From IMG/VR virus record IMGVR_UViG_3300023184_000034, positions 64,001 through 128,000 of that record: a stretch of 64,000 nucleotides of DNA; one strand, given 5' to 3'. The notes under the pieces are model-generated. The model was not told the DNA's origin and ran no database searches. It worked only from the letters and a program-made list of their open reading frames with translations. Of the stretch, positions 19,364-54,049 are shown piece by piece; within the stretch, counting starts at the first letter, position 1, and every line of letters starts with the position of its first letter. Source of the stretch: a virus. A program made the position numbers and the translations under genes.

Positions 19364-19400
19364 ATGCGTATCCTGGTAATGTACGCATATATTTATGCTA

Positions 19401-36795: not shown

Positions 36796-37053
36796 TTAGA
36801 TACGCTTGGTGATATCCAAAATTGCTTCAATCTCTTCCCAATCTGCATTATGCGCACTCCAATCACCCTTGTGAGCAATTTTGATAGCTTTGTTAATGAC
36901 ACTGGGTTTTACTTGTAATTCTTCAGCAACTGCTTTGACTGTTTCTTTCAAACCTTCTGATAGATCTTCAATTTCACGCAGCACTGTGCTGCCTTCTGAA
37001 ATCAAACGCTCTAATTTTGCCTTTTCTTCTGGACCATATGAACGACCTGACAT
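36796..37053 (-). CDS. DsbA/GapR-like dsDNA-binding protein
   Basis: KLERLISEG..EIEDL..LKE..AEEL..KP..INKAIKI; about 85 aa, helical. Confidence 0.6.
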   Translation of the reverse strand: MSGRSYGPEEKAKLERLISEGSTVLREIEDLSEGLKETVKAVAEELQVKPSVINKAIKIAHKGDWSAHNADWEEIEAILDITKRI

Positions 37054-37159: not shown

Positions 37160-40117
37160 TTAACCGCGGGCTATTCTCAACCAGCGAGCCAATTCGTTAT
37201 CGCTTTCTGTAACAGGTTCGAATTGTTTTGTTGCTGGATTTTGTTTATACTCTTTACCAGACACATCTCGATTTACACCCTTGCTGTCTTTATATAGATC
37301 TCCGGGTTTAACACTTGCGGACTTGGGCTGCGCGGCAATACCACCTGCCTTCTTCTCGCTTGCCGTTGCAATAGCTGCAGCTTCCGCTTGTTTTCTTTTT
37401 TCAGCTTTATCTAAAACAGCTTGTGCAGCCATTGTTGAGTTGAGCCAATCTTTATCGTCGCCCCAATCGTTACGCATCAGCTCGCGGATTTTTTTGATTA
37501 AGTCTTTTTGTTCTGGAGTTAATTCGCTTGTGGTGGTATTAGTCGGTGATGCCGCAACATCTGAACCCGTTGTTGTTGGCTCGTGTGCTGGATCAGTTGC
37601 TGGCCCGTTTGCTGTATCAGGTTTTCTCTCATCGTCAAAACCTCCCAATGCTGCCACTGTTCCTGCACCAATTGCTGCAGCTCCGGCCAAGCCCAATGCA
37701 GCAGCCAGCTTGGGATTAGCCTTTATCCAACCTGTTAATCTACCGGATCGTTTGGCGGCCCGGGCTTCTGCAGATGCAGCAGCTCTTTCGGCAGCACTGA
37801 GTTCCTTACCAGCAACACCTGCAACATCGTCTGCAGATTTGGATAAGGCCGCACCAGCGCCTCGCACAGCATCGTCTGCAGCATTGGCACCTGCCTTGGC
37901 ACCTGCACCTACAACATCGTCTGCAGATTTGGATAAGGCCGCACCAGCGCCTCGCACAGCATCGTCTGCAGCATTGGCAACATTATCGCTGCCTCTGACC
38001 ACGGCGTTCATTGTGCCACCTAATTCTTTACTTGCGGCCCTGCCCGCATTCACCGCGTCATTTGCAGCGGCCTGCGCTCTAGCAGCCGCAATGCTGCCAC
38101 CACCTAATTCTCCAGGCTTTGTGATTGCATTGCCGGCGAGGTCTTTGGTTACAGCAGGTGCCTTTGGTAATTCAGCTCTTGCTGCATTGGCGTTGTTGGC
38201 GGTGCGTGTATAAACGGTACCAGCAGGAGTACTAGCTGGTGGCTTTGTAGCAACTTGCGCTGCTTTCTTTTCACCTGCGCCAAACAGTTTTCCAGCTGCA
38301 CCTTTAATGGCGTCATATCCTTTGCCTAGATATTTTGCACCGTAATCAAATTCTGCTAAAAATTTTGGATCCCATTGAATATTTTCAAGCAATTCGTCAT
38401 CTGTAATCAACACGCCGTTGTCATCGATAACAGTATTGTCAGGTCTTAACCACACACGATACACTGTATCTTCTTCCAAACTCCATTGACCACTTTCAAT
38501 CATGGCCAATTTTTGTTGCATTGATCTGATATCTTCTGCCACTGTGTGTACACGATTTTCTGCAATGCCTGCTTTGGACATTGTGGCTGGATCTGCTTTG
38601 CCTGTAACAGGTAGTCCTTGAGCTTTCTGATAAGCCATTAGAGCTTTTGCAGTGTTTGGACCCATCTTTCCATCAATTTGAGCACCAACTAAACCAATTG
38701 CTTGTTGCAATGCTCCAATACGTTTGTCTCCGCCTGGCCCAACAAATGTATTAATATCGGATTTTTGAGCAGCAAGGTTGGCACCCACTATTCCTGCTAC
38801 TTTTGCACCACCTTGCGCAAGTTTACCCGTTGCCCCAATAGTTTTTGCTGCACCCATTGCAGCTCGACCAGCAAGCGCACCAGGAACTGGCACAGCCAAT
38901 GAACCTGCCACATTGCCAGCACCATACAACCATGGACTACGTGTTTCTGCTTCTTTGCTTGCTGCGGCCTGTTGCGCCAATTCGTCTTTGTATGTGCCAG
39001 GACCAAATGCACTCTTGACACCAGCAGCAATGTTGTCTCCTGCGCCCAGTGTCACACCATTCCACATACCACGACCAAAATCGCCTGCATCTTTACCAAA
39101 CTGGCTCATGCTGTATTCATCCAATTGGTCATCTTGAAATTCGTAACCAAGACTTTCAGTCAGTGATCGAGCAATACTTGAATTGTATTGGATGCCTTCT
39201 TGTAAAGCATTCACTCCCATTGCGCCAGCGGCGCCGCCTGTGAGTCCAGCAAGGCCTTGACCTACCACACCAGCTCCCGCTCTTCTAGCCAATTTCCACG
39301 CAGCCAATGCACCAGCAGCTCCGCCAGCGCCAATACCAACTTTCTGTGCTGTGGTTTTTTCTGGGCTTTGTAGTGGTTTAACGAAAGGACCAGTATTTGG
39401 ACTTGGCGCAGGAATTGGTTGTGGAGCAACATCTCCACCCAGTGATGCATCCAATCGTGCAACCAATGCATTTAATTGTGCAACATCTTGTCCGGAACCT
39501 GTGTCTTGTCCAGGCAATCGTGGTCGAGTTGTTGTTCCTGGTGGAATTCTTGTTGATGGGTTTACTACTTCTCCAGCATTAGGGTCAACAGTTCCAATAG
39601 GTAGTGGTGAGTTTACCGGACCGGTAACCGGACCGGGTGGTTTAACAGCAGGCTCAGTAGTAACAGCAGATGGAAGTTTACCCTGTTGTAATAATTTTAC
39701 TTGATCTAATGGAACTGAAGCATTTCCAGCACCGTAACTTGTAAATTTATTCCAGCCGCTGCCTGTTGCTGCCGCTGACGGAACAATACTTACGCCTGCA
39801 CTGTCTAATAACTGTTTAATATCTTTGTGTAAATTGGTTATCTGATCCATTCGCACAGGCTCGGGTCTAGGCGTCTCACCACCATATGGAGTTGACCAAA
39901 ATATAATACCATTTTTTGGATCAATGGTGTGCCCTGCACCTCTGGCACTTGGATCTTCTTGACCTTTAATCATTGCTTGAATTTTTTGAGCCAATGCTGA
40001 TTTGGCTTTTACATCTTCTTGTTTTTTTATATACGCAGCAAATCTAGCTTCTTCATCACCACTTGCGTCTGCTTCTGCAATAGTGTCCAGCTTGTTCATT
40101 AGGTCTCTTAAGTTCAT
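37160..40117 (-). CDS. 985-aa Ala/Gly-rich putative internal virion polyprotein with a peptidoglycan-binding domain
   Basis: N-terminal tag MNLRDLMNKLDTIAE; PGBD-like ALQQ..IDGKMGPNT.KAL..YQ..GLPVTG.AD..T; glycine-zipper hydrophobic stretches; C-terminal ELARWLRIARG. Confidence 0.6.
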   Translation of the reverse strand: MNLRDLMNKLDTIAEADASGDEEARFAAYIKKQEDVKAKSALAQKIQAMIKGQEDPSARGAGHTIDPKNGIIFWSTPYGGETPRPEPVRMDQITNLHKDIKQLLDSAGVSIVPSAAATGSGWNKFTSYGAGNASVPLDQVKLLQQGKLPSAVTTEPAVKPPGPVTGPVNSPLPIGTVDPNAGEVVNPSTRIPPGTTTRPRLPGQDTGSGQDVAQLNALVARLDASLGGDVAPQPIPAPSPNTGPFVKPLQSPEKTTAQKVGIGAGGAAGALAAWKLARRAGAGVVGQGLAGLTGGAAGAMGVNALQEGIQYNSSIARSLTESLGYEFQDDQLDEYSMSQFGKDAGDFGRGMWNGVTLGAGDNIAAGVKSAFGPGTYKDELAQQAAASKEAETRSPWLYGAGNVAGSLAVPVPGALAGRAAMGAAKTIGATGKLAQGGAKVAGIVGANLAAQKSDINTFVGPGGDKRIGALQQAIGLVGAQIDGKMGPNTAKALMAYQKAQGLPVTGKADPATMSKAGIAENRVHTVAEDIRSMQQKLAMIESGQWSLEEDTVYRVWLRPDNTVIDDNGVLITDDELLENIQWDPKFLAEFDYGAKYLGKGYDAIKGAAGKLFGAGEKKAAQVATKPPASTPAGTVYTRTANNANAARAELPKAPAVTKDLAGNAITKPGELGGGSIAAARAQAAANDAVNAGRAASKELGGTMNAVVRGSDNVANAADDAVRGAGAALSKSADDVVGAGAKAGANAADDAVRGAGAALSKSADDVAGVAGKELSAAERAAASAEARAAKRSGRLTGWIKANPKLAAALGLAGAAAIGAGTVAALGGFDDERKPDTANGPATDPAHEPTTTGSDVAASPTNTTTSELTPEQKDLIKKIRELMRNDWGDDKDWLNSTMAAQAVLDKAEKRKQAEAAAIATASEKKAGGIAAQPKSASVKPGDLYKDSKGVNRDVSGKEYKQNPATKQFEPVTESDNELARWLRIARG
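37822..37979. repeat. Perfect 68-bp direct repeat (90-bp period) within the 985-aa gene
   Basis: 37822-37889 is identical to 37912-37979; encodes ANAADDAVRGAGAALSKSADDV twice. Confidence 0.9.
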
Positions 40118-40141
40118 TGTGTTCCCCGAATTAATATGTAT

Positions 40142-41902
40142 TTATTTCACAGAGCATTTGGGAACAGACATTCCGTTCTTGGTTTGCATACCTGTTTGTG
40201 TTTGCCCAGTTCGACAAACACTTGTTTTTGTTCTGGGTTTGATTGTTTTGGGCCTGGTTGATTTAACCGGCTGCAACATCTCTTCTTTTGTTAGTCTGGC
40301 CAGTTTGTTGGCTTCTTTGATTGGATTTTTTTCTTGAGATTGTTTCTCTTGTTTTTCTTTCCATTCTTTTTCAAATTCTGCTTTGGCTTGTCTAGCACGT
40401 TCAGCACTGGCTGTTGATTTGGCCTGCTCACGATCCCACGCACGGCTCAGTTTCACCTGTGCAGACATGCCTTCGTTGGGCATGATACCAGGCGCACCTG
40501 CTCCTGGTTTGAATCCCATGCTGTGTCCGGGAATTTCATTCTCTGCTACACTTTTCTTTTTCTTCTTGGCAATAGCAATGGCAGCTTGTTGTGCAGGATT
40601 GGCCGCTTCTTTCATCATCACACGTTCAGCAATCACAGTGGCATATTGATTGATCAAGTTGCGTTTTTGTACATGTTGTTCTGCAATCTCAGATTCCACT
40701 TGGTGAAAGTACTTGCCCAAGATGTTTTCACGTTCAATTGGTTCAAATACATGTGGTGTTTCTTCTTGGGGTGTTTGATAGTGTTGCATGGCCATTTGTA
40801 CTGGCAGTGTGACTTTGTGTGGACTTTTGCCTTCTTTTAAAATACCAACATTATTCTTATTTACAATAGATAAAAACTTATTTAGATTGTTTTCCTGTAC
40901 AGGAACAGTCTGTTGTGCTTTTTGTTTTTGTAATTCTGCTTGTGCTGGAGTCATTCTTAGTTTTTGATCATATTTCCAACCAGGAGTAAATATTCCGTCA
41001 GGTTGTTGCATGAATCTAGCGTTAGCTTGTTTTTCAAATTCTTTATGTTGAGCACGATTAAATTCCGCGTCTGGGGATTTGTCATCGATGTTTGATAGAC
41101 CAATTGATTGATCAATTGCATATTCTTTACCTTCTGGGGTTCCTAACATACGTTGAATTAGTTCCCAGTCATCTTTAACAAATGCAGGTTGTTTAAAATT
41201 AGGATCAGCTTGTCTTGCTTGATAGTAAGAACCACTTAATGCCATCATCAAATCAGCAAAGTCACTACCACCTTTCCATGCACCGATGCGTGTTGGGTCT
41301 GACGTAGAAGGATGTGCCCCATCAATAATGTCTGCAGGATGTTTGTAATTCTTTTTAAAGAAATCAATACTTGGTACTTGATATTTTGCTGGATCAACTT
41401 GTGGCGTAGTAGGTGCTGCTGTAGCAGGCGCTGCAGGTTGATTTATTTCAGCTTCTTTAACAATTTGAAGTAAATTTCTCATCCCAACATCTTCTAAATA
41501 TTTTTTAGCAAGCTCTGCGTGTGGCGTTCCGCCTGCTACTAAATCGGCATGCTCTTTTTGTCTTGCCTGTTCCCACGCTTGTAAGTTAGGTCCTGCTAGT
41601 TTTTCAGCAGCCGCTTTTAGCTTATCAATCTCGGTCCTAGCGTCTGCACTAACACCGACCTCGACTGGAACAAGATTGCCGGAGCCCGTTGCTTCTTTTT
41701 CTAGGAAATCATACTTCCCCATTAGTTCTTGATACCTTTCCCAGTTAGGATTCGAGTAGTTAGGACCAGTTGGATCTGCTTGGGGTGGTTGATTTAACTC
41801 AGCTTCTTGAACCACTTGAAGAAATTTCCTCATACTGTTGGCATCAACTGCTGGGTTAGCAGCCACACTGTCCAACTTCTGAAGTAATTTCGCCATGTCC
41901 AT
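40142..41902 (-). CDS. 586-aa putative internal virion polyprotein
   Basis: Repeated helix-E tags MRKFLQVVQEAELNQP, MRNLLQIVKEAEINQP, LNKFLSIV..ILKEG; many x-x-E sites. Confidence 0.6.
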   Translation of the reverse strand: MDMAKLLQKLDSVAANPAVDANSMRKFLQVVQEAELNQPPQADPTGPNYSNPNWERYQELMGKYDFLEKEATGSGNLVPVEVGVSADARTEIDKLKAAAEKLAGPNLQAWEQARQKEHADLVAGGTPHAELAKKYLEDVGMRNLLQIVKEAEINQPAAPATAAPTTPQVDPAKYQVPSIDFFKKNYKHPADIIDGAHPSTSDPTRIGAWKGGSDFADLMMALSGSYYQARQADPNFKQPAFVKDDWELIQRMLGTPEGKEYAIDQSIGLSNIDDKSPDAEFNRAQHKEFEKQANARFMQQPDGIFTPGWKYDQKLRMTPAQAELQKQKAQQTVPVQENNLNKFLSIVNKNNVGILKEGKSPHKVTLPVQMAMQHYQTPQEETPHVFEPIERENILGKYFHQVESEIAEQHVQKRNLINQYATVIAERVMMKEAANPAQQAAIAIAKKKKKSVAENEIPGHSMGFKPGAGAPGIMPNEGMSAQVKLSRAWDREQAKSTASAERARQAKAEFEKEWKEKQEKQSQEKNPIKEANKLARLTKEEMLQPVKSTRPKTIKPRTKTSVCRTGQTQTGMQTKNGMSVPKCSVK

Positions 41903-41906
41903 GTTG

Positions 41907-43934
41907 TTAGCCTTTTACCGGTGTAAGTGATCCGGATATACTCTGTAGAATTTGAGGGCCGATATTACCAGCACCTGTACTGGTATTTACAACCACTACC
42001 AAGATCATGTCATTGACATTGAAACTTTGATTGGCCGAAAAAACTGTACCGTTTTTTGATGGTATACGTTCGTTGCTGGTCTTTATTCCAGGATGATTCC
42101 AAGTTCTGTAGTGTCTGCCTGTACTGAGTTTTGTGTTGTAGTACAACTGGGGGGCAATCAAAATAAAATCCTTACTGAGCATGCCTTGTTTGCGATAAGC
42201 ATAGACCCAATCCATATTTACATTTACTGCGCCTTCGTCTCCATTTTTACTGAATTGACTAGCATCTACTTGTTTGTATCCTGGTATTGTAGGAGCCCCA
42301 TCAGGCAGTTTTATAGATTTTTGTTGTTCAACAGCACAACCACCGTTACTAATAAATTTACTCTCTATCTTTTGTAACTTTATCAGCATTGGCCTTGTTA
42401 ACTGCTGACGGAGTTGCGCTGGAATTATCCAATTGCCAACTCCATTTCTTACGTGAAACGGTGTGGGAATCCACATACCGTTGGGATCTAGATAGCCAAA
42501 GTCCGGTGCAGGTTTGACACCCGCCGGCCATGTTTTAGGATCTTCAGGGTCAGAATTAGGACCAGCGGTTGATCCAGTTTGACCACCGGCGGCGCCAGCG
42601 GCGCCAGCGGCACCTACAGCACCCACGATTGCTGGCAATTGACCAGACATGGCCTTGTCTTTAAGATCTTCTATACCGTCTATTGTTGCTTTTATATCTA
42701 ATTTTAAATCGGCACTGGTGGTAGTTAGTCCGAAATAACGCACAAGTACGGGCAGTTGTTTTTTGATTGTATCAACATCTTCTTTTGATAAAACTCCAGA
42801 CTGTATGGCTTGAGCAACGCCGCCGCCATCTGCACCTGCACCTGCACCTGCCTCGGCGCCACCGTCGAATCCCGCCACGCCTCCGGTGGGTTTATCTTCT
42901 GGTTTTTCTTCTGTGTTATTCCACCAGTCCCATAATGCTTTACCACCTTCATATGCTCCCCATCCGGTCAATGCTGCACCGCCAATCTTGGGCAAGGCAG
43001 CACGAATTGGATTACGGGCTTTAAACGCAAGTGATCGTCTAGCCAGTGACTGGGCTGTTGTTCTGGCTGCTGTTCTAGCGCCTGCTGTGGCACCCGGACC
43101 CATTCTGAACATTCTACCAAGTCCCTTTATTAACGGAGCAATAAATTCATTCAGTTGTTCTGGCTTGTTTTCAACTAAAATAGTAAAAATTCTAATTTGT
43201 TCAGCAGGTGAAAATTCATGTAGGTTCTCAGATATCATCCTACGTTTGAGATTATTTCTACTTTCTGTTGTTACATTATATTTTTTAAGAATATTTTTTA
43301 ATTGAGTTAATGCCGTGGCTAATTCAGCTGGTGGACCAATATCTTTTTCTGGATCTCCTGTTTTTCCTCGAAGCTTGGCATCTGCAGCACCAATATCTTT
43401 TTCTGGATCTCCTGATTTACCCCAAGGTTTGACACCTGCAGCACCAATATCTTTTTCTGGATCTCCTGATTTACCCCAAGGTTTGACATCTGCAGCACCA
43501 ATATCTTTTTCTGGATCTCCTGATTTACCCCAAGGTTTGTCGCCCATGTTTGATGGCTTGTTAGTACTGGTGGGAAGTTCTTCTGCCATAGGGTGTTGTG
43601 GTGGGATACCAAATCCCACTTCACCGTCTGTGGCACCTGCATCACTGGTTTTAGTTGCGGATAATTTTTGAAAATCTTTAGGACTTACAATTATTTTACC
43701 ACCGCCTTCTAAACCAGCAATAATACTACCAGCTGATGAGATGCTTATTTTTCTAAATCCTTGAGATAGAGCCTTTGTTTCAACATCTGGGGTAAGTTCA
43801 AACCATAGTTTACTTGGTTCAACTGGAGTTAAGCCGTTGCCACTTTTGACCATGGGCTTGCCGCCCTGCATGGTTATGTAGTAAGGAGCCTCTCCTTCAG
43901 CTATGAATTTAGAAACAATATCTTTTACACGCAT
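41907..43934 (-). CDS. 675-aa putative internal virion polyprotein
   Basis: N-terminal tag MRVKDIVSKFIAEG; 18-aa tandem repeats; amphipathic segment after LNE. Confidence 0.6.
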   Translation of the reverse strand: MRVKDIVSKFIAEGEAPYYITMQGGKPMVKSGNGLTPVEPSKLWFELTPDVETKALSQGFRKISISSAGSIIAGLEGGGKIIVSPKDFQKLSATKTSDAGATDGEVGFGIPPQHPMAEELPTSTNKPSNMGDKPWGKSGDPEKDIGAADVKPWGKSGDPEKDIGAAGVKPWGKSGDPEKDIGAADAKLRGKTGDPEKDIGPPAELATALTQLKNILKKYNVTTESRNNLKRRMISENLHEFSPAEQIRIFTILVENKPEQLNEFIAPLIKGLGRMFRMGPGATAGARTAARTTAQSLARRSLAFKARNPIRAALPKIGGAALTGWGAYEGGKALWDWWNNTEEKPEDKPTGGVAGFDGGAEAGAGAGADGGGVAQAIQSGVLSKEDVDTIKKQLPVLVRYFGLTTTSADLKLDIKATIDGIEDLKDKAMSGQLPAIVGAVGAAGAAGAAGGQTGSTAGPNSDPEDPKTWPAGVKPAPDFGYLDPNGMWIPTPFHVRNGVGNWIIPAQLRQQLTRPMLIKLQKIESKFISNGGCAVEQQKSIKLPDGAPTIPGYKQVDASQFSKNGDEGAVNVNMDWVYAYRKQGMLSKDFILIAPQLYYNTKLSTGRHYRTWNHPGIKTSNERIPSKNGTVFSANQSFNVNDMILVVVVNTSTGAGNIGPQILQSISGSLTPVKG
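43335..43539. repeat. 54-bp tandem repeat, about 3.8 copies
   Basis: accaatatctttttctggatctcctg recurs at 43335, 43389, 43443 and 43497; encodes KPWGKSGDPEKDIGAADV. Confidence 0.92.
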
Positions 43935-43938
43935 AATA

Positions 43939-45552
43939 TTATCCTAATAAACGTTTTGTCAATGCACGAATTTGATCAACTTCACGATTCTCAACCAGTG
44001 CTGGCTGTTCAGTACGATTCAAACGACCAGTAAGTTCACGCATGCGAGCCAAATCATTTCCTTCGCTGATAGGATCTTTTTTGCCTGCTGGTGCTGGCAT
44101 CATTGCACCTAATTTTTTAGCTTCTTCTGCATCTTTGGCACCCGATGGATTTGGCACAACAACTAAATTCTCATCAGTTACTTTTTCTTTCTTCTTTCTT
44201 TCTGCCATGTAAGCAGTAGTTTCTTTCATGTTCCGCCAAATGGCTGCTGCTACCATCTTGTCATCTGTTTCCTTAACAGTTTGCTTTTTATGACCCTTGG
44301 CCGCACGACTCATAGTTTGTTTGGCAGCTTCTTTAACACCCACTGCCTTCATAGCTCCATACGTCATTGCGGCATTCTTTAAACCTGGCACCATTGCTGA
44401 TCCCAGAGACTTTGTTTTTTCCCAAGCACTCATTGGTGCTGGAGCACCCGCAGCGGTAGGAGTATCTTCTTTAACTTTCTTGCCGCCTTTTTCATCTTTG
44501 CCAATGCGCCCGGCGATAACATCACCGCGTGTTACTTTGTCATAAGGTTTGGCATTGTTGGCCAAGTTACCGTCGCCTTTCTTTTTGGCTTCGTACATGC
44601 CACATTCTTTTAAACCGTGTACTGGACACTTTTTATCTTTTGGTGTGTGATTGCATTTGCCTTCACCCATTGCTGCACTTGCTCCAGCTTTCTTTAGATC
44701 AGCACCAGTGGCTCTCATGCCTGGCACTGTGGTTGTTGCGGTTGTGGGAATTCCAGATTTTTGTGGTGCACCACTTATTGCGGTTTCTTTAACACCACCG
44801 CGCAACTTCTTAAAATCATCTCCGTCTAATTTGCCGTTATGATTCTTGTCCAGTTTCTTCTTACCACCTTTGAGTGCTTCGTCAACTTTCTTGCCGTCTT
44901 TCACACGAGTCACTGAATCTTTACCAAAACGTTTTTCCCAGTTTTTGCCTTCTTTCTCTTCAGCTTTGTCAGCAGCTTTGTTGCCTTCCTTGTCTGCAGC
45001 TGATTGTGATTTGGCATTTGATTTGGGCTCAGTATGCTCTTCATCACTGAATCTGTTGGGATTCTCTTTGTGTTTAGTTACACCTTTGGTTGAACGGTCA
45101 ATTTCGCCACCTGTGGATGATTTTTCTTCAGAAACTTTTTCAGCTTGAGCTTTCTTGAGTTCTTTCACTTTTGATTTTGCTTCTGATAATAATTCTTTGA
45201 TTCTCATTTTTTGTCCTTCGCTCAGTGTATCACTGTTGTCCAAGTGGTGACCGTATTCGCTGAATTTCATTTCATATTCTAAATAGTGATATACTGATGC
45301 AATATAGTCAGCAGCCTTGGTAATTTTGGCCTGTACCCATGATTCCAATTGGTCATTGTCTTCCAACTGTTGATACAGCTTGTGTGCGTAGTTGGCTATT
45401 TTGAACAAATCAGCTTTGGCCATGGCACCTTCGCGGTCAGTCTCGCCACCGTGTAAGCCTATGGTGCCGCCCACTGGTTCTGAATCCATTTCTGGCTGAT
45501 CCATCTCAGGTTGGTCCATTTCTGAGTCAATGTTATCTAATTCTGCTGGCAT
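43939..45552 (-). CDS. 537-aa charged putative prohead core/internal protein
   Basis: N-terminal EGAMAK..LESWVQAKITKAADY domain; more than 12 [LVIM]-x-E sites; EF-hand-like loop; late-like CTAAATA upstream. Confidence 0.6.
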   Translation of the reverse strand: MPAELDNIDSEMDQPEMDQPEMDSEPVGGTIGLHGGETDREGAMAKADLFKIANYAHKLYQQLEDNDQLESWVQAKITKAADYIASVYHYLEYEMKFSEYGHHLDNSDTLSEGQKMRIKELLSEAKSKVKELKKAQAEKVSEEKSSTGGEIDRSTKGVTKHKENPNRFSDEEHTEPKSNAKSQSAADKEGNKAADKAEEKEGKNWEKRFGKDSVTRVKDGKKVDEALKGGKKKLDKNHNGKLDGDDFKKLRGGVKETAISGAPQKSGIPTTATTTVPGMRATGADLKKAGASAAMGEGKCNHTPKDKKCPVHGLKECGMYEAKKKGDGNLANNAKPYDKVTRGDVIAGRIGKDEKGGKKVKEDTPTAAGAPAPMSAWEKTKSLGSAMVPGLKNAAMTYGAMKAVGVKEAAKQTMSRAAKGHKKQTVKETDDKMVAAAIWRNMKETTAYMAERKKKEKVTDENLVVVPNPSGAKDAEEAKKLGAMMPAPAGKKDPISEGNDLARMRELTGRLNRTEQPALVENREVDQIRALTKRLLG

Positions 45553-45578
45553 GAGTATACTCCGTTGTCTTTATGTAT

Positions 45579-46595
45579 TTAGCGTCGTTTGATAGGCGGC
45601 CCACCAAATAAGCTAGCGCCTTTGATGTCCAAGCCGTTCTTGGCTGTGCCGTCTTTGTTTTTGGGTTGATTAACTTTGGGTTGCGGTGGTGCCTTGCTGC
45701 CTGATTTGCCAGGACTACCAATATAACTCTTTTTACCACGTGCTTTGCCAGGGCTCAAATGCGGTGCATCTACCGTGCCAATGTTAGCAGCACTGGTTGC
45801 ACCCACGGTGGCTGACTCACCCATTGGTTTGCCTTCCGCCACACCTTGCTCTTTACTTTTCTTCAGTATATCAGGATGTGCGAAACCTTTTTTGACTTGT
45901 TCTGCCGGACTCATCTTATCAACTAACTTACCAAGTTTAGGATCAACATCATGCCAAGTCTTTGGATAGGGCTTTTTATCACCTCCCGCCACACCTTTGT
46001 TTCCTTTTGCCATTTTCAATGAGGTTTTTAGTGCTGCCGTTTTTCCTCTAGGAGTTTTAGCATCATTTGCGGTATCTGCTCTGCGTTGAAGTGGATCGTA
46101 CCCAAACTTTGGGCTATTAGGATTGCGCGGTGTTTTGTTGCCTTCGTCATCTACATCATACGCATCTGGATCGCTACGCCATTTAGCAGCCTCCGCCACA
46201 CCTTGCTCACCATGCTTTTTAGCACGACGAATTCTATTTGCTAAATGATGTAATCCAGACTCCATACTACGTGCTTTACGCTCTCCAGCAGATAAATTTT
46301 GCTCACGATCCGCATATTGCCAATCTGATCCACCTAATGCTTCGTATTCTTTTTTCATTTTTGCATATTCAGCTTCGAGGTGCGGAAGATCTGCGTGGTC
46401 CTGTGCTTGGTCATCTTGAGATTTTTGATGTGCTACTGCTCTATCTGTTTCACGTTTTTCAGAATCTTGTCTGCGTAACTCATCGTGCTCTGGATCACCG
46501 TGGATACGTAGATTTTTAAATTTAGGATTATTTTTTTGTAAATCTTTAAGAAACGAAGACATATCGTTTTCTTGTACTAACTCATTTATTTTCAT
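45579..46595 (-). CDS. 338-aa putative internal virion protein made of cassettes joined at GVAE/GVAG motifs
   Basis: N-terminal tag MKINELVQE; three AAGGTGTGGCGG-encoded junctions. Confidence 0.65.
   Translation of the reverse strand: MKINELVQENDMSSFLKDLQKNNPKFKNLRIHGDPEHDELRRQDSEKRETDRAVAHQKSQDDQAQDHADLPHLEAEYAKMKKEYEALGGSDWQYADREQNLSAGERKARSMESGLHHLANRIRRAKKHGEQGVAEAAKWRSDPDAYDVDDEGNKTPRNPNSPKFGYDPLQRRADTANDAKTPRGKTAALKTSLKMAKGNKGVAGGDKKPYPKTWHDVDPKLGKLVDKMSPAEQVKKGFAHPDILKKSKEQGVAEGKPMGESATVGATSAANIGTVDAPHLSPGKARGKKSYIGSPGKSGSKAPPQPKVNQPKNKDGTAKNGLDIKGASLFGGPPIKRR
45836..46204 (-). repeat. Three identical 12-bp motifs AAGGTGTGGCGG with unrelated in-frame spacers
   Basis: CCGCCACACCTT starts at 45836, 45986 and 46193 (periods 150 and 207 bp); copies 1 and 3 share GAGCAAGGTGTGGCGGA. 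Confidence 0.85.
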
Positions 46596-46822
46596 TTTTT
46601 AATTCCTCTAAATCCTGTGCCTACAGCAACTTCACCACCCATGAACTTGGGCAAACTAAACCATAACTTAAACCATTCTTCGGTTCCGGGTTTGATATTC
46701 TGCTCACGCATTATAACTGCTTTTTCAGTACCAGTTACACTGATGTTGCTTCCGTCATAAGGTTGCAGGCCTTTAAATTCCTTAATGCCTGCTAACTTTT
46801 TAAGACGTGCTAATTCATCCAT
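46592..46822 (-). CDS. Small phage protein beginning MDELARLKKLAG
   Basis: NIKPGTEEWFKLWF segment; coupled to dps by TAATG. Confidence 0.65.
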   Translation of the reverse strand: MDELARLKKLAGIKEFKGLQPYDGSNISVTGTEKAVIMREQNIKPGTEEWFKLWFSLPKFMGGEVAVGTGFRGIKK

Positions 46823-47259
46823 TATTTCAAACTGGACCTTAACATCCAGCTGTGCTTTTTATGTGCATCTTGGCGATCTGCTAAAAAGTTACTCAACCCA
46901 TGATCTCCAGCTTGTTCAGCCATGTCAAATGTGATGCGGAATATATTAGCCATACGCTCGCTATCTTCTAACAACTCACTCAGCATGCCACTCCAATCAG
47001 GCACAGCGTTTTCATCTTCAACTTTGGTAAGCATACTGAACTTGGCTAGGCTTGCTGGTGTGTAAATCTGTAATGCACGTAGGTGTTCCGCAAATGGATC
47101 CACAGCACCATATACTTCTTCATATATGGTTTGAAATAAGTTGTGCAGTTGAGCAAACAACGGACCCTCCACATTCCAATGGAAATTATGTGCTTTTAAA
47201 TAAAAACTAAATTCGCTGGCAAACGCTGTTTTCAATGCCAAGTGATATTTCTCGTCCAT
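46822..47259 (-). CDS. dps: Dps ferritin-like DNA protection protein
   Basis: KAHNFHWNVEG..F..LH..F...Y, D..AE, HKKHSWML. Confidence 0.92.
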   Translation of the reverse strand: MDEKYHLALKTAFASEFSFYLKAHNFHWNVEGPLFAQLHNLFQTIYEEVYGAVDPFAEHLRALQIYTPASLAKFSMLTKVEDENAVPDWSGMLSELLEDSERMANIFRITFDMAEQAGDHGLSNFLADRQDAHKKHSWMLRSSLK

Positions 47260-47261
47260 GA

Positions 47262-48332
47262 TTAAATTCCGTATTTGTTCTTTTTAATTTTTGCCACTGC
47301 ACTGGTTTTATTAACATCAGCAGTTTCTAAACTTCGATTGTTACTCCATGTCTGTCGCTTACCGCCACCTACTTGTTTAGCGGCAGCATTGATCATATCG
47401 TTTTCTTCTTCAGTGTAGGGTGCTAGTAATGGATCTCCACCGATCCAATTGTCTGCTTCAATTTTTGTGGGATAATCAGGAGCACCTGCCAATGCAATAC
47501 CCATCCTGTACCCCATATATGCACTACCAGTACTTTGATTCATTGAAGGAAATGTTGTTGCATTTTTAATTGCGGCCTTATGATGTCCGTGCATCTTTTG
47601 TGTGCCACCGTGACCTTCTCTTAATGATCTTGCCAACGCATTGGCTTCCTTCAAAGATACATCTGGTTCGGCTTTTTCTTTTTTTGCTCGCACCTTGGGC
47701 TTGCTGAAATCTTGCATGCGTGTTTGTGCTTTTTGCATCAAATCTCTTACTTCGTCATCATCCAGTTCGGGGTTCATTGCATCACGCCAAACAGCAAACT
47801 TTTCGTCATCACTCTTGCTTGGATCCATTAACACATCTCGCATGGGCGTGGCACGTGGCCCTTCTTGTTCACGACTTGGATCGTTGGTTTCTTGACGAGC
47901 AATCACATTTAAACTGTTAAAACTAAACGGAATTCTGCCAGCTTTGTCTGGAACTCCGTTATACTGCTTGACATAACTTAAACCTTTGACTTGATCTTCT
48001 CCCACTACCACAGTTACATCAGTATAACCGTGATGGTCGAGTTTTGTTAACACACGAGTTAAATCAGGCATATCATCTGTGGCAGTGTGAAAAATATGTC
48101 CGTGAGCTGGAAATACTTTTTTATAAATCTGCATTTTTTCTTCTGGCTTGATTGGATCGTCTTTGCCCACTGTGCGGCTAACAACAAAGTAAGGATCAGC
48201 ACCTTGTTCGTCTGCTTGTGTGATAACACTGCTGGCCAGATACATGTGACCTTTGTGACCCATGCCACGCCCCCAGCCCACCACAGCAGCTTTGCCTTCC
48301 CCAGTGCGATTAAGAAATTCACGTAACAACAT
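47262..48332 (-). CDS. HIGH-superfamily (cytidylyltransferase-like) nucleotidyltransferase with an extra C-terminal domain
   Basis: VVGWGRGMGHKGH, VVVGEDQ, YNG, RATPMR; N-terminal tag MLLREFL. Confidence 0.7.
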   Translation of the reverse strand: MLLREFLNRTGEGKAAVVGWGRGMGHKGHMYLASSVITQADEQGADPYFVVSRTVGKDDPIKPEEKMQIYKKVFPAHGHIFHTATDDMPDLTRVLTKLDHHGYTDVTVVVGEDQVKGLSYVKQYNGVPDKAGRIPFSFNSLNVIARQETNDPSREQEGPRATPMRDVLMDPSKSDDEKFAVWRDAMNPELDDDEVRDLMQKAQTRMQDFSKPKVRAKKEKAEPDVSLKEANALARSLREGHGGTQKMHGHHKAAIKNATTFPSMNQSTGSAYMGYRMGIALAGAPDYPTKIEADNWIGGDPLLAPYTEEENDMINAAAKQVGGGKRQTWSNNRSLETADVNKTSAVAKIKKNKYGI

Positions 48333-50230
48333 TAGTCTTTCCTCGGAGCCCAGTTGGCCTGGTCAATGGTTTTTACAAACTGTCCAGGCAAATCATTTTT
48401 AAATTTACCACCCGGATGTGCTTGTACATATCCTTCTGGTTTTGTTTGACGAATACCGCCGTGTGTGCCTGAACTCAATGTGTTGATAACTTTCATCTTT
48501 TCGTGTGTTAGTAATTCAACAGCACTCAACACAGCATCTAATCCAGGATGACTCAACACTTTTTGTGCTTGTGTATTGCTTAGTTTTGCAGTGGCCCATT
48601 CTCTAAATTTCTGTTTAACACCAGCCACACGTAAATTTTGATTAAAGAAACTGTACAACACATCGCCAGGTTTGCTTAGTCCAGGCTGACCCGCAATAAA
48701 GCTATCTATAGCAGCCTTGTTTTGTTTGATGTATGACTCGGCGTGTTTTAATCCAGTGTTGTCAACTTTGGGTGCATTTTCAACATATGTTGTGCCTTGT
48801 ACAATAACATCACCGTTGGATAATTTTTCAGCATTGGGATAACGTGTTTCATCTGCACCAATGTGTGTGTAGTAACCAGTTGCAGCCACCATAACTTTTG
48901 ATCTAGAAATTTTCTTACCCAGTGCGCTGCCTACTGGAATATGGAAACTTGTTATGTTGGGAGTGAAATCATATTCATTGGTACTGGGATTTAACACAGC
49001 TGGCTTTAAAGGACTAAACAGTATCCCACCTTCGATATATCCTGATTTGGGACTGATGCTTTCAAAGTAAGGCCATAGGTCTGCAAGTCCTTGAGCAAAT
49101 GCTTTGCGTTGATCTTCTTGTCCGGGTTGTGCTGTGCCTGTGCCCAACACAAACATGGCCACATCGTCCGGGTCGTTCATCATGGTGGTAACACCACTCT
49201 TGGTATGAGTGGTGCCGCGCTTCATGTAGTCCCATGCGTTCTTTGGAAACATGTGAAATTTGCCATGCTCGTCTCGACCCCAGTATACCACAGGACTTCC
49301 GTCCCATTTTAATTCTATACCTTTGCCTTTGGCAGTCATGTCACGCAGTCGTTCAACTGCATGTAAACCACCCACACTGCCATCAGTGAAAACCAAATCT
49401 TCAATGTGTTGATACTTGCGGCCCACAGCTGCTTCCAACAATGATGTGGCTGGACCACGTAACGGAGCAGCTGACCAACTGGACCCAGATGTTGCAGCAT
49501 CATGTACTTGTTGTTTTAATGCAGGATCTTTAATTGCTGACATGATACTTTCTGCACTGCCAAGATCATTACCAGTGTGTCCAGGCCCTAATAATAGTGT
49601 GGCTATTTCATCCCAACTATCGGACAACAAGTCTGCTTTCTTTCTAGCAGCATCTCTTGCGTACAGTCCTTCGTCTGGGCTCCACAGCATGTTCTTAGCA
49701 CTGGCCAACGCACTCATCACCACTTGCTTGTGTACACCCTTGTATGGACTACCCTTGGGTATCTGATGTTGATGGAACTTGGATACTTTCTCAGCTTTAC
49801 GAACAACTTTGATATCACACTGATAAAATTGTCCGTTGTATGGAAATTTAATGTGTACAGTTACCCCAGCTTTATAAGTTGCTGGAACACCATTGTCTAA
49901 TAAAAATTGTTCCAGAGCGTTTCTAGCGGCCTTGTCATCGTCAGCCAACTTCTTGCTCTGAGGAATTTTAAAATATTGTTTAACTTGATCCATGTCGCAG
50001 CTAACATCCAAGTCACCTGTTGGATGTTCTGGTGTAGGGTCTGTGTTGGCACCACTGCCTTGTACATACAACGGAAAACCTGCTTTGCGAAGATACTTCT
50101 TAACTTGCGATAACAGTGCTTGTACTATATCCGGAGTAGGATAAAACTCCACAGTTTCAGGCCAGATGTTGCCACCACCTTCTTTGAGAATAGGCTTTCT
50201 AACATTAGAAAATAATTCACGTAGTAACAT
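48332..50230 (-). CDS. Fusion of a Pol-beta-superfamily nucleotidyltransferase and an RNA-ligase-like (KxDG) domain
   Basis: N domain GS..GDLDV..YQCD; C domain HIEDL, LKWDGSP, IEGGILF, PEGYV, FVK; start MLLRELF. Confidence 0.65.
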   Translation of the reverse strand: MLLRELFSNVRKPILKEGGGNIWPETVEFYPTPDIVQALLSQVKKYLRKAGFPLYVQGSGANTDPTPEHPTGDLDVSCDMDQVKQYFKIPQSKKLADDDKAARNALEQFLLDNGVPATYKAGVTVHIKFPYNGQFYQCDIKVVRKAEKVSKFHQHQIPKGSPYKGVHKQVVMSALASAKNMLWSPDEGLYARDAARKKADLLSDSWDEIATLLLGPGHTGNDLGSAESIMSAIKDPALKQQVHDAATSGSSWSAAPLRGPATSLLEAAVGRKYQHIEDLVFTDGSVGGLHAVERLRDMTAKGKGIELKWDGSPVVYWGRDEHGKFHMFPKNAWDYMKRGTTHTKSGVTTMMNDPDDVAMFVLGTGTAQPGQEDQRKAFAQGLADLWPYFESISPKSGYIEGGILFSPLKPAVLNPSTNEYDFTPNITSFHIPVGSALGKKISRSKVMVAATGYYTHIGADETRYPNAEKLSNGDVIVQGTTYVENAPKVDNTGLKHAESYIKQNKAAIDSFIAGQPGLSKPGDVLYSFFNQNLRVAGVKQKFREWATAKLSNTQAQKVLSHPGLDAVLSAVELLTHEKMKVINTLSSGTHGGIRQTKPEGYVQAHPGGKFKNDLPGQFVKTIDQANWAPRKD

Positions 50231-50604
50231 TATATACCCTTGTACTTGCCAGCTTGTATGTGTTCTTGTATATCGTCGTGCATTTTGGAACAAGCTTCTT
50301 TGCACATCTTTTCTTCTAATTCATCGGGCAATTCACGTATGGGGAATTTTTCTTTGTACTGTTTATAGCATTCTTTTATGGCTTCGGCAAACATGGTGGC
50401 TTGTACCGGCTTCTTGGCATTGACCAAATCTAAACATTTAACTAAAACTGGAAAAACGTGACGACGGTATATATGGTCGTCGTTGTGCATGAAATGCAAC
50501 AAGTCTTCTATTAGATCGTAGTCTAACTCACGTTTATCGCCATGTTGTTTAACATATGCTAATTCTTTAAAATTAGCGTTTTCTAATAACTCTTTTATAA
50601 GCAT
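50230..50604 (-). CDS. Hypothetical protein with MLIKELLE tag
   Basis: DL..DL.HFMHNDD..YRR segment; ATAAATA at 50638-50644. Confidence 0.65.
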   Translation of the reverse strand: MLIKELLENANFKELAYVKQHGDKRELDYDLIEDLLHFMHNDDHIYRRHVFPVLVKCLDLVNAKKPVQATMFAEAIKECYKQYKEKFPIRELPDELEEKMCKEACSKMHDDIQEHIQAGKYKGI

Positions 50605-50663
50605 TTTTATTCCCAACAGAATACTCTGGATTTAGAGTATTTATCGCTTTTACGATCATTAGG

Positions 50664-51287
50664 CTATGCTTTGATAATGCGAGAAACCTTGGATATACTA
50701 CCGCCAAGGTGCATTTTTGACATGAGTAAGTTGTTATCACCTGTTACATAGAAGTGTGTACCGCCCCAACTGCGATTCCTTGTCAAGGCTGCTATACAAC
50801 TCTTTGTTAGTTTGAGTTTTTTATTACATGATGCCCATGATATAAATGCACTGTGTTCCTGTGTAGTTTTACCCAGCGTCACTCGGAAATCGTAGTTCAT
50901 CTTGGGCATAATCACAGTATCAGAACTCAGTGACACATTGGCCGGCGGCGCACAAACATACTTGACCCTGTTGCTGTCCAACTTTGCTAAATCATCTATA
51001 TGACTTTTATTATTTGTGTACACAGTAATCCATGGGTTTTCTATCCTGATATTTAAATCAACCGATATAGACAACACTTTATACAGAGACAACGCATAGT
51101 CCTTGTCTTCAAAACTTTTAAAACTTAGAGATCCAGGCCGAGAACTTGGAGAAATGCTACTTTTTTGCAACATGTTCAAACAGTGTTGCCAATCACCGTT
51201 GCGAAAGAAGTGTGCATTGGAACACACCAACACTATCTTGTATTGGTATATCCCCATGAACAACTTGCTAGTGGTTTTAACTAACAT
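50664..51287 (-). CDS. Hypothetical protein
   Basis: 207-aa ORF overlapping the clpA end. Confidence 0.6.
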   Translation of the reverse strand: MLVKTTSKLFMGIYQYKIVLVCSNAHFFRNGDWQHCLNMLQKSSISPSSRPGSLSFKSFEDKDYALSLYKVLSISVDLNIRIENPWITVYTNNKSHIDDLAKLDSNRVKYVCAPPANVSLSSDTVIMPKMNYDFRVTLGKTTQEHSAFISWASCNKKLKLTKSCIAALTRNRSWGGTHFYVTGDNNLLMSKMHLGGSISKVSRIIKA

Positions 51288-53556
51288 TCATCTCAACCAA
51301 CGAAGTAGTGGAATCCACTGTTAGCAACGGCGTTTTTGATTCCTTGGGAGTTGACAACAACACCAACTTGTCGTCTTGAACTGTGATGTTTAGTACTCCG
51401 CCGTTCTTTAAATTACCAAACAACATGAGCTTTGCCATCGGACGTTTGATTTCCTTGTCAATCACACGTTGTAACGGACGTGCGCCCATCTTGGGATCAA
51501 AACCTTTGGTAATAAGCCAGTTAGTACTTTCCTTATCTAACTTGATACGAATGCCTTTTTCTTTAACTTGAGCACGTAACTCATCCATAAATTTAACAAT
51601 AACCTTGGTCATAGACTCTTTGCCCAACTTGTTAAAAGTCATAATACCATCCAATCGATTACGGAACTCTGGTGTAAAGAATTTCTTCAAATCTGCATCA
51701 CTGTAATCTTTTTCCTGTGCGCCAAAACCAATGGCATTCTTTTCCGCAGATTGTGCGCCAGCATTGGTAGTGAGGATAAGAATCAAATTACGGCAATCTG
51801 CTTGTTTGCCATTTGACCCTGTGACAAAACCGTTATCCATCATTTGCAACAACACAGTTGTGACATCTGGATGCGATTTTTCAACTTCATCAAACAACAA
51901 CACTGCATTTGGATTCTCTTGAATCTGTGTGATTAGCAATCCAGCGTTCTCCTCAAACCCCACATAGCCAGGAGGACTACCGATCAGTTTGGAAATGCTG
52001 TGCTTTTCTTGGTATTCTGACATGTCAAATCTCAACAACTTGACACTCAAGTGCTTGGCCAGTGATTTGGCAGTTTCGGTCTTGCCGCAACCCGTGGGCC
52101 CCATGAACACAAATGATCCAATGGGTTTATTTTCTGATTTTAATCCAGCCTGCGCCACCATGATCTTATCCACAACTTCTGTAAGAGCAAGATCTTGCCC
52201 GTAAACTTCACGTTGCAAGTTTTCTTGTAGCATGGAAAGATTGCTGGATTCTGTTTCCATGATCTTTTCTTCAGGCATTTGAATCATCTTGGCCAGTTCA
52301 AACTGAATTTCACGCTCGCCAATGATTCGATCATCTGCAAGTTTGAGATTAAAACGACTACATGCCAAATCGATCAAGTCAATTGCTTTGTCTGGCAACT
52401 TCTTGTCTGTTTGATATTTGACTGACAATTTAATAGCAGCATCCAGTGCATCATCACGTATTTTAACCTTGTGGAAACCTTCGTAGTATTTCTTAATACC
52501 TTTGAGGATTTGTTTGGTAACTTCCACGGTGGGCTCGTCAACTGTGATGCGTTGAAACCTGCGCATCAGCGCACGATCCTTTTCAAAGTGCTTGCGATAT
52601 TCTTCCCATGTGGTTGATGCAATGACTTTGATGTTGCCTTTGCTCAGTGCAGGTTTCATCATGTTGGCAAGGTCGTTTGAACTGTTGCCACCTGCGCCAG
52701 CACCACTAATCATGTGAGCTTCGTCGATAAACAACACAGTTTTGCCTTTCTTCTGCAATGCCTTAATAACATGCTTGAATCTTTCTTCAAAGTCTCCACG
52801 ATACTTGCTGCCAGCCAGCATAGCACTGATATCTAAACTGTAAACTTTGTATTCTTTGAGAAATTCTGGAACAGCACCATTCACAATATTGTGTGCAAGG
52901 CCTTCAGCAATAGCAGTCTTGCCCACGCCAGGATCACCAACTAAAATCACATTATTTTTATTGCGACGACCCAATGCCAGTGCAATATTTTCTAATTCGT
53001 CAATACGACCAATAACTGGATCAATCTTTTGTTTTTCAACCATGTCGTTTAGATTGGTTGTAAACGCACGAAGTGCTCTGTCGCTTTGATTGTCTGTGCC
53101 AGATTCTTCTTCAGATTCTTCAGAATTGCTGTTATTAACAAAGTCATTGAACTTGTCTTTATCGATTTTGGCCTTTTGGATGTAATAATGTGCCCAGCTG
53201 CGTTTTTCACCAATCATGCTCATGAACACATCAGTGGGTTCAATACGTTGCCTACCGTTAAACAACACTTGTGTAAATGCACGATTAAGCACACGCTCTA
53301 CACTTTGAGTTTTCTTTGGTTTAACAACCACATCAGTGATGGTGATTTCTTGACACTTGTTGTGCAAATAATCTGTTAGATCATTTTTAAGTTCGTCAAG
53401 ATTTGCGCCAAATCCTGTGATCACGTTTCCAAATGGTTCCTCCAACAACATGGCATACAATAAATGTTCTATTGTAAGATACTCGTGATGAAGTTTTTTA
53501 GCTGTATCAATTGCTTTTTCAAATACCGCTTGTAGGTTATCACTTGGTTCAACCAT
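51277..53556 (-). CDS. clpA: ClpA-type double AAA+ chaperone/unfoldase
   Basis: HEYLTIEHLL N-domain, GDPGVGKT, GPTGCGKT, IGF ClpP-docking loop, MGARPL. Confidence 0.93.
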   Translation of the reverse strand: MVEPSDNLQAVFEKAIDTAKKLHHEYLTIEHLLYAMLLEEPFGNVITGFGANLDELKNDLTDYLHNKCQEITITDVVVKPKKTQSVERVLNRAFTQVLFNGRQRIEPTDVFMSMIGEKRSWAHYYIQKAKIDKDKFNDFVNNSNSEESEEESGTDNQSDRALRAFTTNLNDMVEKQKIDPVIGRIDELENIALALGRRNKNNVILVGDPGVGKTAIAEGLAHNIVNGAVPEFLKEYKVYSLDISAMLAGSKYRGDFEERFKHVIKALQKKGKTVLFIDEAHMISGAGAGGNSSNDLANMMKPALSKGNIKVIASTTWEEYRKHFEKDRALMRRFQRITVDEPTVEVTKQILKGIKKYYEGFHKVKIRDDALDAAIKLSVKYQTDKKLPDKAIDLIDLACSRFNLKLADDRIIGEREIQFELAKMIQMPEEKIMETESSNLSMLQENLQREVYGQDLALTEVVDKIMVAQAGLKSENKPIGSFVFMGPTGCGKTETAKSLAKHLSVKLLRFDMSEYQEKHSISKLIGSPPGYVGFEENAGLLITQIQENPNAVLLFDEVEKSHPDVTTVLLQMMDNGFVTGSNGKQADCRNLILILTTNAGAQSAEKNAIGFGAQEKDYSDADLKKFFTPEFRNRLDGIMTFNKLGKESMTKVIVKFMDELRAQVKEKGIRIKLDKESTNWLITKGFDPKMGARPLQRVIDKEIKRPMAKLMLFGNLKNGGVLNITVQDDKLVLLSTPKESKTPLLTVDSTTSLVEMNVS

Positions 53557-54049
53557 TACGTTTTCCTTTTCTCTTTAATAATTTCTTTTTAGCTAATGAC
53601 AATTTTAATGGACTAATATTGTCTATAAAACAAACACCATCCAAGTGGTCTAGTTCATGTTGAAAACATCTTGAATCTATTCCAGTTAGTTCTATTATAC
53701 ATTCTTTGTTTTGTCTGTCAATGTATCTGACTGTAATATTGTTATGTCTGGGTACTTTTAAAATTAGTCCAGGAAAGCTCAAGCATCCTTCTTCTCCAGT
53801 GACCATATTGTTATCTCCCCACAATATCGATGGATTGAACATACAAAACGGTACTTGATTTGTCAAGTGTATGGCAAAAACTCGTTTAAGTAAACCAACT
53901 TGATTGGCCGCTAATCCCCTGCCGTGACTCACAACCATAAGTTGAACCATGTCAACTTCTAAATTGGCCGGGTTCTGATCTTTTTCAAAATCCCAACGTT
54001 CTGCAGTTTGTTTTAGAATAAGATCAGACGACTCTATTAATTTCAGCAT
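53549..54049 (-). CDS. def: Peptide deformylase
   Basis: GLAANQVG, EGCLS, QHELDH. Confidence 0.95.
   Translation of the reverse strand: MLKLIESSDLILKQTAERWDFEKDQNPANLEVDMVQLMVVSHGRGLAANQVGLLKRVFAIHLTNQVPFCMFNPSILWGDNNMVTGEEGCLSFPGLILKVPRHNNITVRYIDRQNKECIIELTGIDSRCFQHELDHLDGVCFIDNISPLKLSLAKKKLLKRKGKRNG

Follow-up and report, generated by a model that had tools for sequence, protein, structure and literature searches.

Shared N-terminal leaders in a gene cluster of an uncultured jumbo T4-like phage point to probable cargo of the phage head

Why should seven proteins with no other resemblance, encoded side by side in one phage genome, begin with nearly the same short peptide? The question is raised by a locus in a stretch of 64,000 nucleotides (nt), referred to below as the window, which comprises bases 64001-128000 of the 161-kb IMG/VR record IMGVR_UViG_3300023184_000034 (CheckV completeness 44%). 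The record is that of an uncultured freshwater jumbo T4-like phage; its DNA polymerase shares 43-48% identity with the counterparts in the jumbo phages Phosso and Atu_ph07 and in the 121Q group, and a T4-type portal is encoded in it. The locus consists of ten closely spaced, co-oriented genes, all on the minus strand, which run from 50604 down to 37160 in window coordinates. An earlier note on this DNA had listed seven shared N-termini in the locus, and all are present as quoted. The genes make it probable that the locus is a head-cargo cluster, in which the leaders are addresses resembling the capsid-targeting sequence (CTS) of phage T4 and the products are trimmed by a protease of the gp21 type; packaging, cutting and delivery are what we infer from this arrangement.

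The leader-type N-termini belong to the genes that start at 50604, 50230, 48332, 46595, 43934, 41902 and 40117. In this order, the products are a small conserved protein of 124 amino acids (aa), termed family A (50230..50604; MLIKELLE^N, the caret marking the predicted cut); a 632-aa enzyme with a DUF6267 domain (48332..50230; MLLRELFSNVRKPILKE^GGGN; Pfam 7.6e-14); a 356-aa cytidylyl/adenylyltransferase-like enzyme (CTase) with an HxGH motif (47262..48332; MLLREFLNRTGE^G; phrog_3041/395 cytidyltransferase); a 338-aa basic protein (45579..46595; MKINELVQE^N); and three large proteins of 675 aa (41907..43934; MRVKDIVSKFIAE^G), 586 aa (40142..41902; MDMAKLLQKLDSVAA) and 985 aa (37160..40117; MNLRDLMNKLDTIAE^A). 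Beyond the leader, no mutual similarity is found among the seven. In the genome proteome used for pattern counts (139 open reading frames (ORFs), 51,428 aa), the pattern M.[ILVM].[DE][ILVFM][ILVMF] has 8 matches: six N-termini of the locus, one position inside the 537-aa protein of the same cluster (at residue 116, immediately behind an LSE^G site) and one protein encoded beside the portal gene. Composition alone predicts 0.23 N-terminal matches, and for a strict form of the pattern 0.02 against the 5 observed. The seventh leader, MDMAKLL of the 586-aa protein, is a variant in which K/R replaces the D/E of the others, and it is invariant within its own family. Three genes of the locus, encoding the Dps-like, 76-aa and 537-aa proteins, lack an N-terminal leader, and other late structural genes do not carry the pattern. 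Five of the seven leaders in the window end within 17 residues in a site of the L/I-x-E type; the exceptions are the CTase and the 586-aa protein, whose first site is at E33. The predicted cuts follow E8 in the 124-aa, E17 in the 632-aa, E13 in the 675-aa and E15 in the 985-aa protein. The leader-bearing protein beside the portal gene (26727-27758 of the genome, outside the window; G001 99648-100853) contains hydrophobic segments and also adjoins a 1428-aa gene; it begins MKVYEII, followed by an h-x-E site (h, hydrophobic), and this leader is close to the T4 CTS MKTYQEFIAE.

Related loci from IMG/VR, about 90 obtained by searches with the locus proteins and 80 via a distant family A member, bring the comparison to about 170 loci of uncultured phages, in which the leader is kept on non-homologous proteins as their sole shared feature. 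It is present on 29 of 29 family A proteins (MRIxELLE^G/N), 26 of 30 DUF6267 proteins and 26 of 28 members of the 985-aa family, and on none of the polymerase, ClpA, Dps and all flanking families. The cluster is flanked by a block of ClpA-like, deformylase and DnaJ genes on one side and by a DsbA-like gene and the DNA polymerase gene on the other; across 35 loci with both anchors, 109 of 448 ORFs within the ClpA-polymerase interval carry the leader, as against 1 of 232 outside it. A 345-kb relative that is 94% complete has about 10 leader-bearing ORFs among 377, of which five belong to the syntenic cluster, one neighbours the head genes and a further one shows an HExxH motif with no Pfam match. 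The leader is followed by h-x-E[GASN], with Glu at residues 8-20, in 82% of non-redundant cases (102/125), compared with 9.5% of 874 other ORFs, and position P3 of these sites is Leu or Ile in 92 of the 102 and L/I/V in 98. Comparison at the sequence level further reveals that h3-x-[D/E]5-h6 is invariant across the leader-bearing families. The Arg and Leu positions are written with 3-5 different codons while the residue is unchanged, which indicates that selection acts on the peptide. Just past the predicted site conservation collapses: in the 985-aa family a nearly invariant MNLRDLMxKLDTIAE^A gives way to hypervariable sequence. Homologues of both enzymes in the cyanophage P-HM1 and in a Vibrio jumbo phage lack the leader, which identifies it as an appended address; the DUF6267 homologue PHM1_161 of P-HM1 has none, and the cyanophage and Vibrio-phage cytidylyltransferases begin at the first beta-strand, lacking the tag of about 12 aa.

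The likeness to T4, which the earlier note had proposed, holds in position, in chemistry and in the L/I-x-E site. For the comparison, the T4 sequences of the internal proteins (IPs) IPI, IPII and IPIII and of gp24, Alt and gp22 were fetched. Their propeptides read MKTYQEFIAE^A (IPII and IPIII), MKTFKEF...ITE^A (IPI), MAKINELLRE^S (gp24), MELITELFDE (Alt) and MLKEQLIAE^A (gp22), and a core h-x-E-h-h-x-E is common to the T4 propeptides and the leaders of the locus, the latter lying one residue nearer to the Met. In T4 IPIII, the hydrophobic residues 4 and 7 serve targeting, while residues 8 and 10 (I8/E10) serve processing (PMC9026906). The CTS on IPI, IPII, IPIII and Alt, together with its processing by gp21, was described by Mullaney and Black (1996) and has been reviewed (PMC9026906, PMC3012670, PMC5694885); a 2021 preprint likewise gives its sequence. 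Processing in T4 is blocked by Asp at position 10, and targeting is not. The machinery that such an address calls upon is encoded in the record as well. As in T4, the head genes run in the order portal, acidic core protein, protease, scaffold and major capsid protein. The prohead protease (18770-19402 of the genome), a Peptidase_S77 member, shares 33% identity with T4 gp21, and its His-Pro and Ser-Ser-Arg-Gly (SSRG) motifs align with those of gp21. YLME^SPTTG of the major capsid protein aligns with FLTE^AEIGG, the maturation site of T4 gp23 (L-x-E), and the scaffold has the highest [ILVM]-x-E density of the genome (7.7 per 100 aa, z=5.5 vs shuffles). The gp21-type protease, the head gene order, the capsid protein site and the scaffold density make T4-like head assembly and maturation under the same cutting rule a sound premise. 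The reading of the leaders as capsid addresses is thus well supported in silico.

In the mechanism that we propose, an amphipathic leader of 7-15 residues, M-x-h-x-[D/E]-h-h...h-x-E, built on the design of the T4 CTS, would dock each protein onto the scaffolding core during prohead assembly. The gp21-type protease would then cut after the Glu and free the leader, and would probably also cut a few conserved internal h-x-E joints, while the mature pieces would remain in the DNA-filled head and exit with the DNA. Among the pieces delivered in this way would be two enzymes, one nucleotidyltransferase/ligase-like and one cytidylyltransferase-like, as well as basic proteins rich in Lys and a large Gly/Ala-rich protein with a peptidoglycan-binding domain. 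Variable cassettes may be gained and lost between duplicated joint elements, so that cargo could be exchanged without altering the address. A broader proposal, which we put forward tentatively and hold to be somewhat doubtful, is that the interval from the ClpA-like to the DNA polymerase gene serves a large aquatic clade of uncultured T4-like phages as a plug-in cargo bay, in which an 8-residue leader loads any protein into the head, duplicated leader/joint elements, which also act as protease sites, allow cassettes to be swapped, and an enzyme kit is delivered together with envelope-penetrating proteins at DNA entry. In relatives this kit might also contain the HExxH-motif protein and a protein with a 5'-nucleotidase domain.

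How far the products are cut internally is a separate matter. The earlier note had described protease-punctuated polyproteins, with [ILVM]-x-E recurring at domain borders, that are cut into many separate effectors. Just two locus proteins, those of 537 aa (z=4.0) and 124 aa (z=2.2), have a raw motif density above shuffles, and a general h-x-E enrichment across the locus is rejected by the shuffle test. The conserved joints bear out recurrence at borders in part, and the polyprotein description, partly supported overall, suits the 586-, 338-, 537- and 985-aa proteins; it does not suit the 675-aa protein, whose borders lack the motif, or the DUF6267 protein, in which only the leader site is found. 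With 2-7 conserved candidate sites per protein, the phrase 'many separate effectors' is an overstatement. The note had suggested motif enrichment over non-virion genes as a check. When conserved h-x-X triples are considered, Glu is the commonest X in the cargo families and not in polymerase or ClpA.

The clearest joints are found in the 586-aa protein, where two variable cassettes are bracketed by KFLQVVQE^AE (33-35), LLQIVKE^AE (150-152), VQE^N (337) and ILKE^G (357). In its family, variable cassettes of 40-330 aa lie between the elements KFLRVVxE^AE(I/L)NQ and VQE^NSLxKFLSIVxKNxVxILNE^G, and short forms have a single fused element. A second kind of joint, EQGVAE^A, KGVAGG and EQGVAE^G, divides the 338-aa protein. 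The motif [QE]GVAE occurs 23 times in 519,016 aa, where about one occurrence is expected, always in cluster proteins and with varied codons, and two relatives, L005 and L007, vary as to whether an entire module stands between a pair of GVAE joints. Within the 338-aa gene, the QGVAE/KGVAG joints are encoded by three identical 12-mers, AAGGTGTGGCGG (45836-45847, 45986-45997 and 46193-46204, minus strand), which suggests recent duplication or recombination at the joints. A DNA-level motif as the cause of QGVAE is rejected because the codons differ across relatives, even though the 12-mers are identical within the gene. AlphaFold models are mostly of low confidence (mean predicted local distance difference test, pLDDT, 50 and 61), with candidate sites at the edges of folded islands; in the 985-aa AlphaFold2 (AF2) model the domain borders fall at E321/334, E520/528/541 and E971.

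A second recurrent peptide, h-x-E^S-x-(D/E)-L-x-R-(L/M)-(R/K)-x-L-(A/T)-G, is observed in unrelated cluster proteins at N-termini, internally and at extreme C-termini, here and in many relatives; a looser form, (D/E)-L-A-R-(L/M/W)-(K/R)-x-(L/I)-(A/T)-G, mostly comes after h-x-E^S/G/N. Its copies in the locus lie at 46778-46822, at about 44000-44070 and at 37160-37204, the last forming the final 14 residues of the 985-aa protein, which ends in VTE^SDNELARWLRIARG. This peptide may serve as a second address, at the C-terminus, or may bind the core.

Several observations weigh against reading the locus as head cargo. The CTase leader ends in T-G-E rather than in an h-x-E site, h-x-E density does not exceed shuffles in five of the seven leader-bearing proteins, and the module borders of the 675-aa protein lack such a site. 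Family A is conserved over its full length, tag included, so its leader may be part of the fold. When a relaxed pattern was applied to the 266 ORFs of T4, it recovered IPI, IPII, IPIII, gp24 and Alt together with about nine non-head proteins, for example lysozyme e, and it is therefore sensitive without being proof for any single protein. No cultured relative is known: neither a DNA search with the whole locus nor tblastn searches with four proteins of the locus or its relatives gave a match to cultured phages. The last point concerns expression. Genome-wide, 25 genes, including many structural ones, have the late-type motif TAAATA within 80 nt upstream, where 3.6 would be expected; the usual distance is 24-31 nt. 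The earlier note had reported it before several genes of the locus; on the minus strand it is indeed found 29 nt upstream of the 537-aa gene (45576..45581), 27 nt upstream of the 985-aa gene (40139..40144) and 39 nt upstream of the family A gene (50638..50643), but conservation is confined to the first of these (at 29/30 nt in 40 of 48 relatives, as against 5 of 27 and 3 of 29). A conserved late promoter only ahead of the second half of the cluster means that the enzyme genes may be expressed earlier. The IP genes of T4 are transcribed both early and late.

The likeliest alternative to head cargo is that the leader-bearing proteins are accessories of the prohead core or scaffold, which would be degraded and expelled like gp22, gp67 and gp68 of T4 and would thus be assembly aids and not effectors. 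The leader resembles the N-termini of the scaffold and the protease themselves, many segments are of low complexity and poorly folded (mean pLDDT 50-61), and the 537-aa protein, for which this role is possible, matches a scaffold-type protein in its wealth of h-x-E sites (z=4.0). Against this, the two enzymes and the peptidoglycan-binding protein have 1-7 conserved sites and intact folded domains, no assembly role is obvious for enzymes or a peptidoglycan-binding domain, and the variable set turns over fast, as counter-defence cargo would; for the cluster as a whole we consider the explanation unlikely. Still less likely, in our judgement, is a leader with no bearing on the capsid, acting as a signal for the ClpA-like/deformylase/DnaJ module or as an oligomerisation helix of a cytoplasmic complex. 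It would account for the presence of those genes beside the cluster here and in distant relatives, and would leave unexplained the h-x-E[GASN] after 82% of the leaders, the match to T4 propeptides and the leader-bearing gene beside the portal. Known degrons of the ClpA/ClpS system, moreover, are C-terminal ssrA tags or N-terminal F/L/W/Y, and not Met-initiated helices.

Two further explanations take the leader away from the head altogether. Leaders that serve as recognition sites of a modifying enzyme, such as a radical-SAM/SPASM maturase, would agree with the radical-SAM/SPASM proteins encoded in this genome and with the two found within 6 kb of a leader-bearing gene in the relative L008. Homologues occur, however, in only 3 of 170 related loci, and their distance from the cluster is about 42-50 kb in this genome as well as in the near-complete relative; this explanation was rejected for want of linkage and strikes us as very improbable. 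The two proteins concerned are encoded at 156420-160494 of the genome (L198), unlinked to the cluster, and one of them is fused to DUF6492 and a methyltransferase domain. That the likeness of the leaders merely reflects a nucleotide constraint at translation starts, or chance and composition, has in its favour that A-rich codons after the ATG are common in highly expressed phage genes. With 0.02-0.23 matches expected against 5-7 observed, with Arg and Leu drawing on 3-5 codons at invariant residues and with the pattern absent from other late structural genes, an artefact of this kind is effectively refuted, and its probability is almost negligible.

Taken as head cargo, the locus invites comparison with systems that are already known, since the concept of cargo loaded through a CTS is familiar from T4. 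As in the T4 internal proteins, a short N-terminal leader is the sole feature common to unrelated proteins, an h-x-E-h-h core is followed by an L/I-x-E site, and a scaffold is encoded along with a protease of the gp21 family; a basic cargo and a changeable set of genes are further likenesses. The differences lie in scale and content: about 3,700 tagged residues of putative cargo contrast with about 390 (IPs) and 682 (Alt) in T4, nucleotidyltransferase/ligase-like enzymes and a peptidoglycan-binding protein are included, several products string multiple cassettes together through conserved internal joints, and the genes are clustered beside that for DNA polymerase. The vertex protein gp24 of T4 offers the closest peptide, MAKINELLRE^S being almost identical to MKINELVQE^N here and MKINELILRE^E in relatives; gp24 is a shell protein, whereas here the peptide heads non-capsid proteins.

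In phiKZ, 201phi2-1 and SPN3US, inner-body and ejection proteins are processed by a gp21-related protease (PMC5694885, PMC10052503). Many head-internal proteins of phiKZ-type phages are cut after Glu and their propeptides are inferred to target the prohead, but these are mostly longer than 100 aa with S/A-x-E sites, in contrast to the tags of 8-17 aa with L/I at P3 described here. Encapsulin cargo-loading peptides are likewise short and terminal and address proteins to the interior, although they are C-terminal and not removed. The Dar system of phage P1 (PMC9024508) also addresses the capsid interior, with a cargo that has an anti-defence role. Both Dar and encapsulins differ from the locus in capsid lineage and in the logic of the address.

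That T4-like phages can load varied proteins by means of the CTS is already suggested in reviews (PMC9026906); the literature searched contained no account of such scale, enzyme cargo, cassette joints or spread over uncultured phages. If the leaders do work as capsid addresses, the internal-protein trick of T4 would be not a T-even curiosity but a general and much expanded delivery system, spread in abundant uncultured T4-like phages of fresh and marine waters. The enzymes would then be at work ahead of all phage gene expression, with counter-defence or RNA/nucleotide repair as their most plausible roles. The rule M-x-h-x-E-h-h...h-x-E could predict virion cargo straight from metagenomes, and the leaders offer a compact natural set of tags for loading foreign proteins into large capsids.

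Pfam and PHROGs returned nothing for the uncharacterised families of the locus. Family A has 205 representative homologues, the distant members of which likewise begin MK(I/L)FE(I/L), and neither Pfam nor PHROG searches gave a match even with these included. In the metagenomic proteins P0130, P0131 and P0139, the family A domain forms the C-terminal end of proteins of 675-837 aa, and P0131, the one checked, has PG_binding_1 at its N-terminus; this links family A to envelope-directed proteins. The start of the 632-aa protein (MLLRELF..ILKE) at 50230 is an internal ATG that overlaps the upstream stop, while 14 of 26 distinct DUF6267 genes in relatives of 48332-50230 use a GTG start directly overlapping the family A stop. 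An N-terminal Pol-beta-like nucleotidyltransferase motif (GS..GDLDV) and a ligase-like KWDG in the DUF6267 domain, both read by eye, are present in this protein. The CTase carries a C-terminal extension after SLKE^ANALARSLRE^G. A search of PDB sequences with the 632- and 356-aa enzymes was uninformative. The untagged Dps/ferritin-like protein of 145 aa (46822..47259; Pfam Ferritin 6.6e-22, phrog_3636) is without the leader in all 30 relatives, and the 76-aa protein (46592..46822), which begins MDELARLKKLAGIKE^F, has the second recurrent peptide at its N-terminus.

The Lys-rich 537-aa protein (43939..45552) has 18 h-x-E sites, an internal copy of the tag at residues 110-124 (LSE^GQK-MRIKELLSE^A) and the C-terminus ISE^GNDLARMRELTGRLN. 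Its N-domain finds only unnamed viral clusters in the ESM Atlas. We also note a CCHC knuckle in this protein, CNHTPKDKKCPVHGLKEC (about 44605-44658, minus strand), similar to the free-standing 48-aa cyanophage ORF PHM1_164 (L003:8094-8240), which adjoins the DUF6267 and cytidylyltransferase genes of P-HM1. In the 675-aa protein, four tandem repeats, KPWGKSGDPEKDIG / KPWGKSGDPEKDIGAA, lie at about 43326-43538 (minus strand), a related motif being single-copy in relatives, and the C-terminal domain (436-672) is encoded by a separate tagged gene in L008. An 11/12 match to a sigma-70 promoter (TTGACA-18-TATTAT) at 43933-43962 (minus strand) ends at the start codon of this gene; a scan of the region for sigma-70 promoters and terminators remained at chance level. 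Foldseek returned nothing for the AF2 model of the 586-aa protein, and for that of the 985-aa protein weak matches (E>=2.1, none <=0.001), all of them peptidoglycan-binding domains, in line with PG_binding_1 at 478-514 (Pfam 3e-11). The locus proteins are basic, with isoelectric points of 7.6-9.6 against a genome median of 5.6. The Gly/Ala-rich hydrophobic stretches of the 985- and 675-aa proteins and the peptidoglycan-binding domain would be apt for proteins that exit the head and encounter the envelope.

Directly upstream of the cluster lies the protein-handling block (51277-54884, minus strand), which encodes a ClpA-like double-AAA+ unfoldase with a Clp_N domain and an AIGFG loop, a peptide deformylase and DnaJ. 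The block also borders the cluster in distant relatives, and some relatives have an apparent ClpP-type protease gene (read by eye). Between the cluster and the DNA polymerase gene, an 85-aa gene (36796-37053, minus strand) matches the family of the T4 late-transcription regulator DsbA (PF11126, 1.9e-5) and is kept in 33 relatives.

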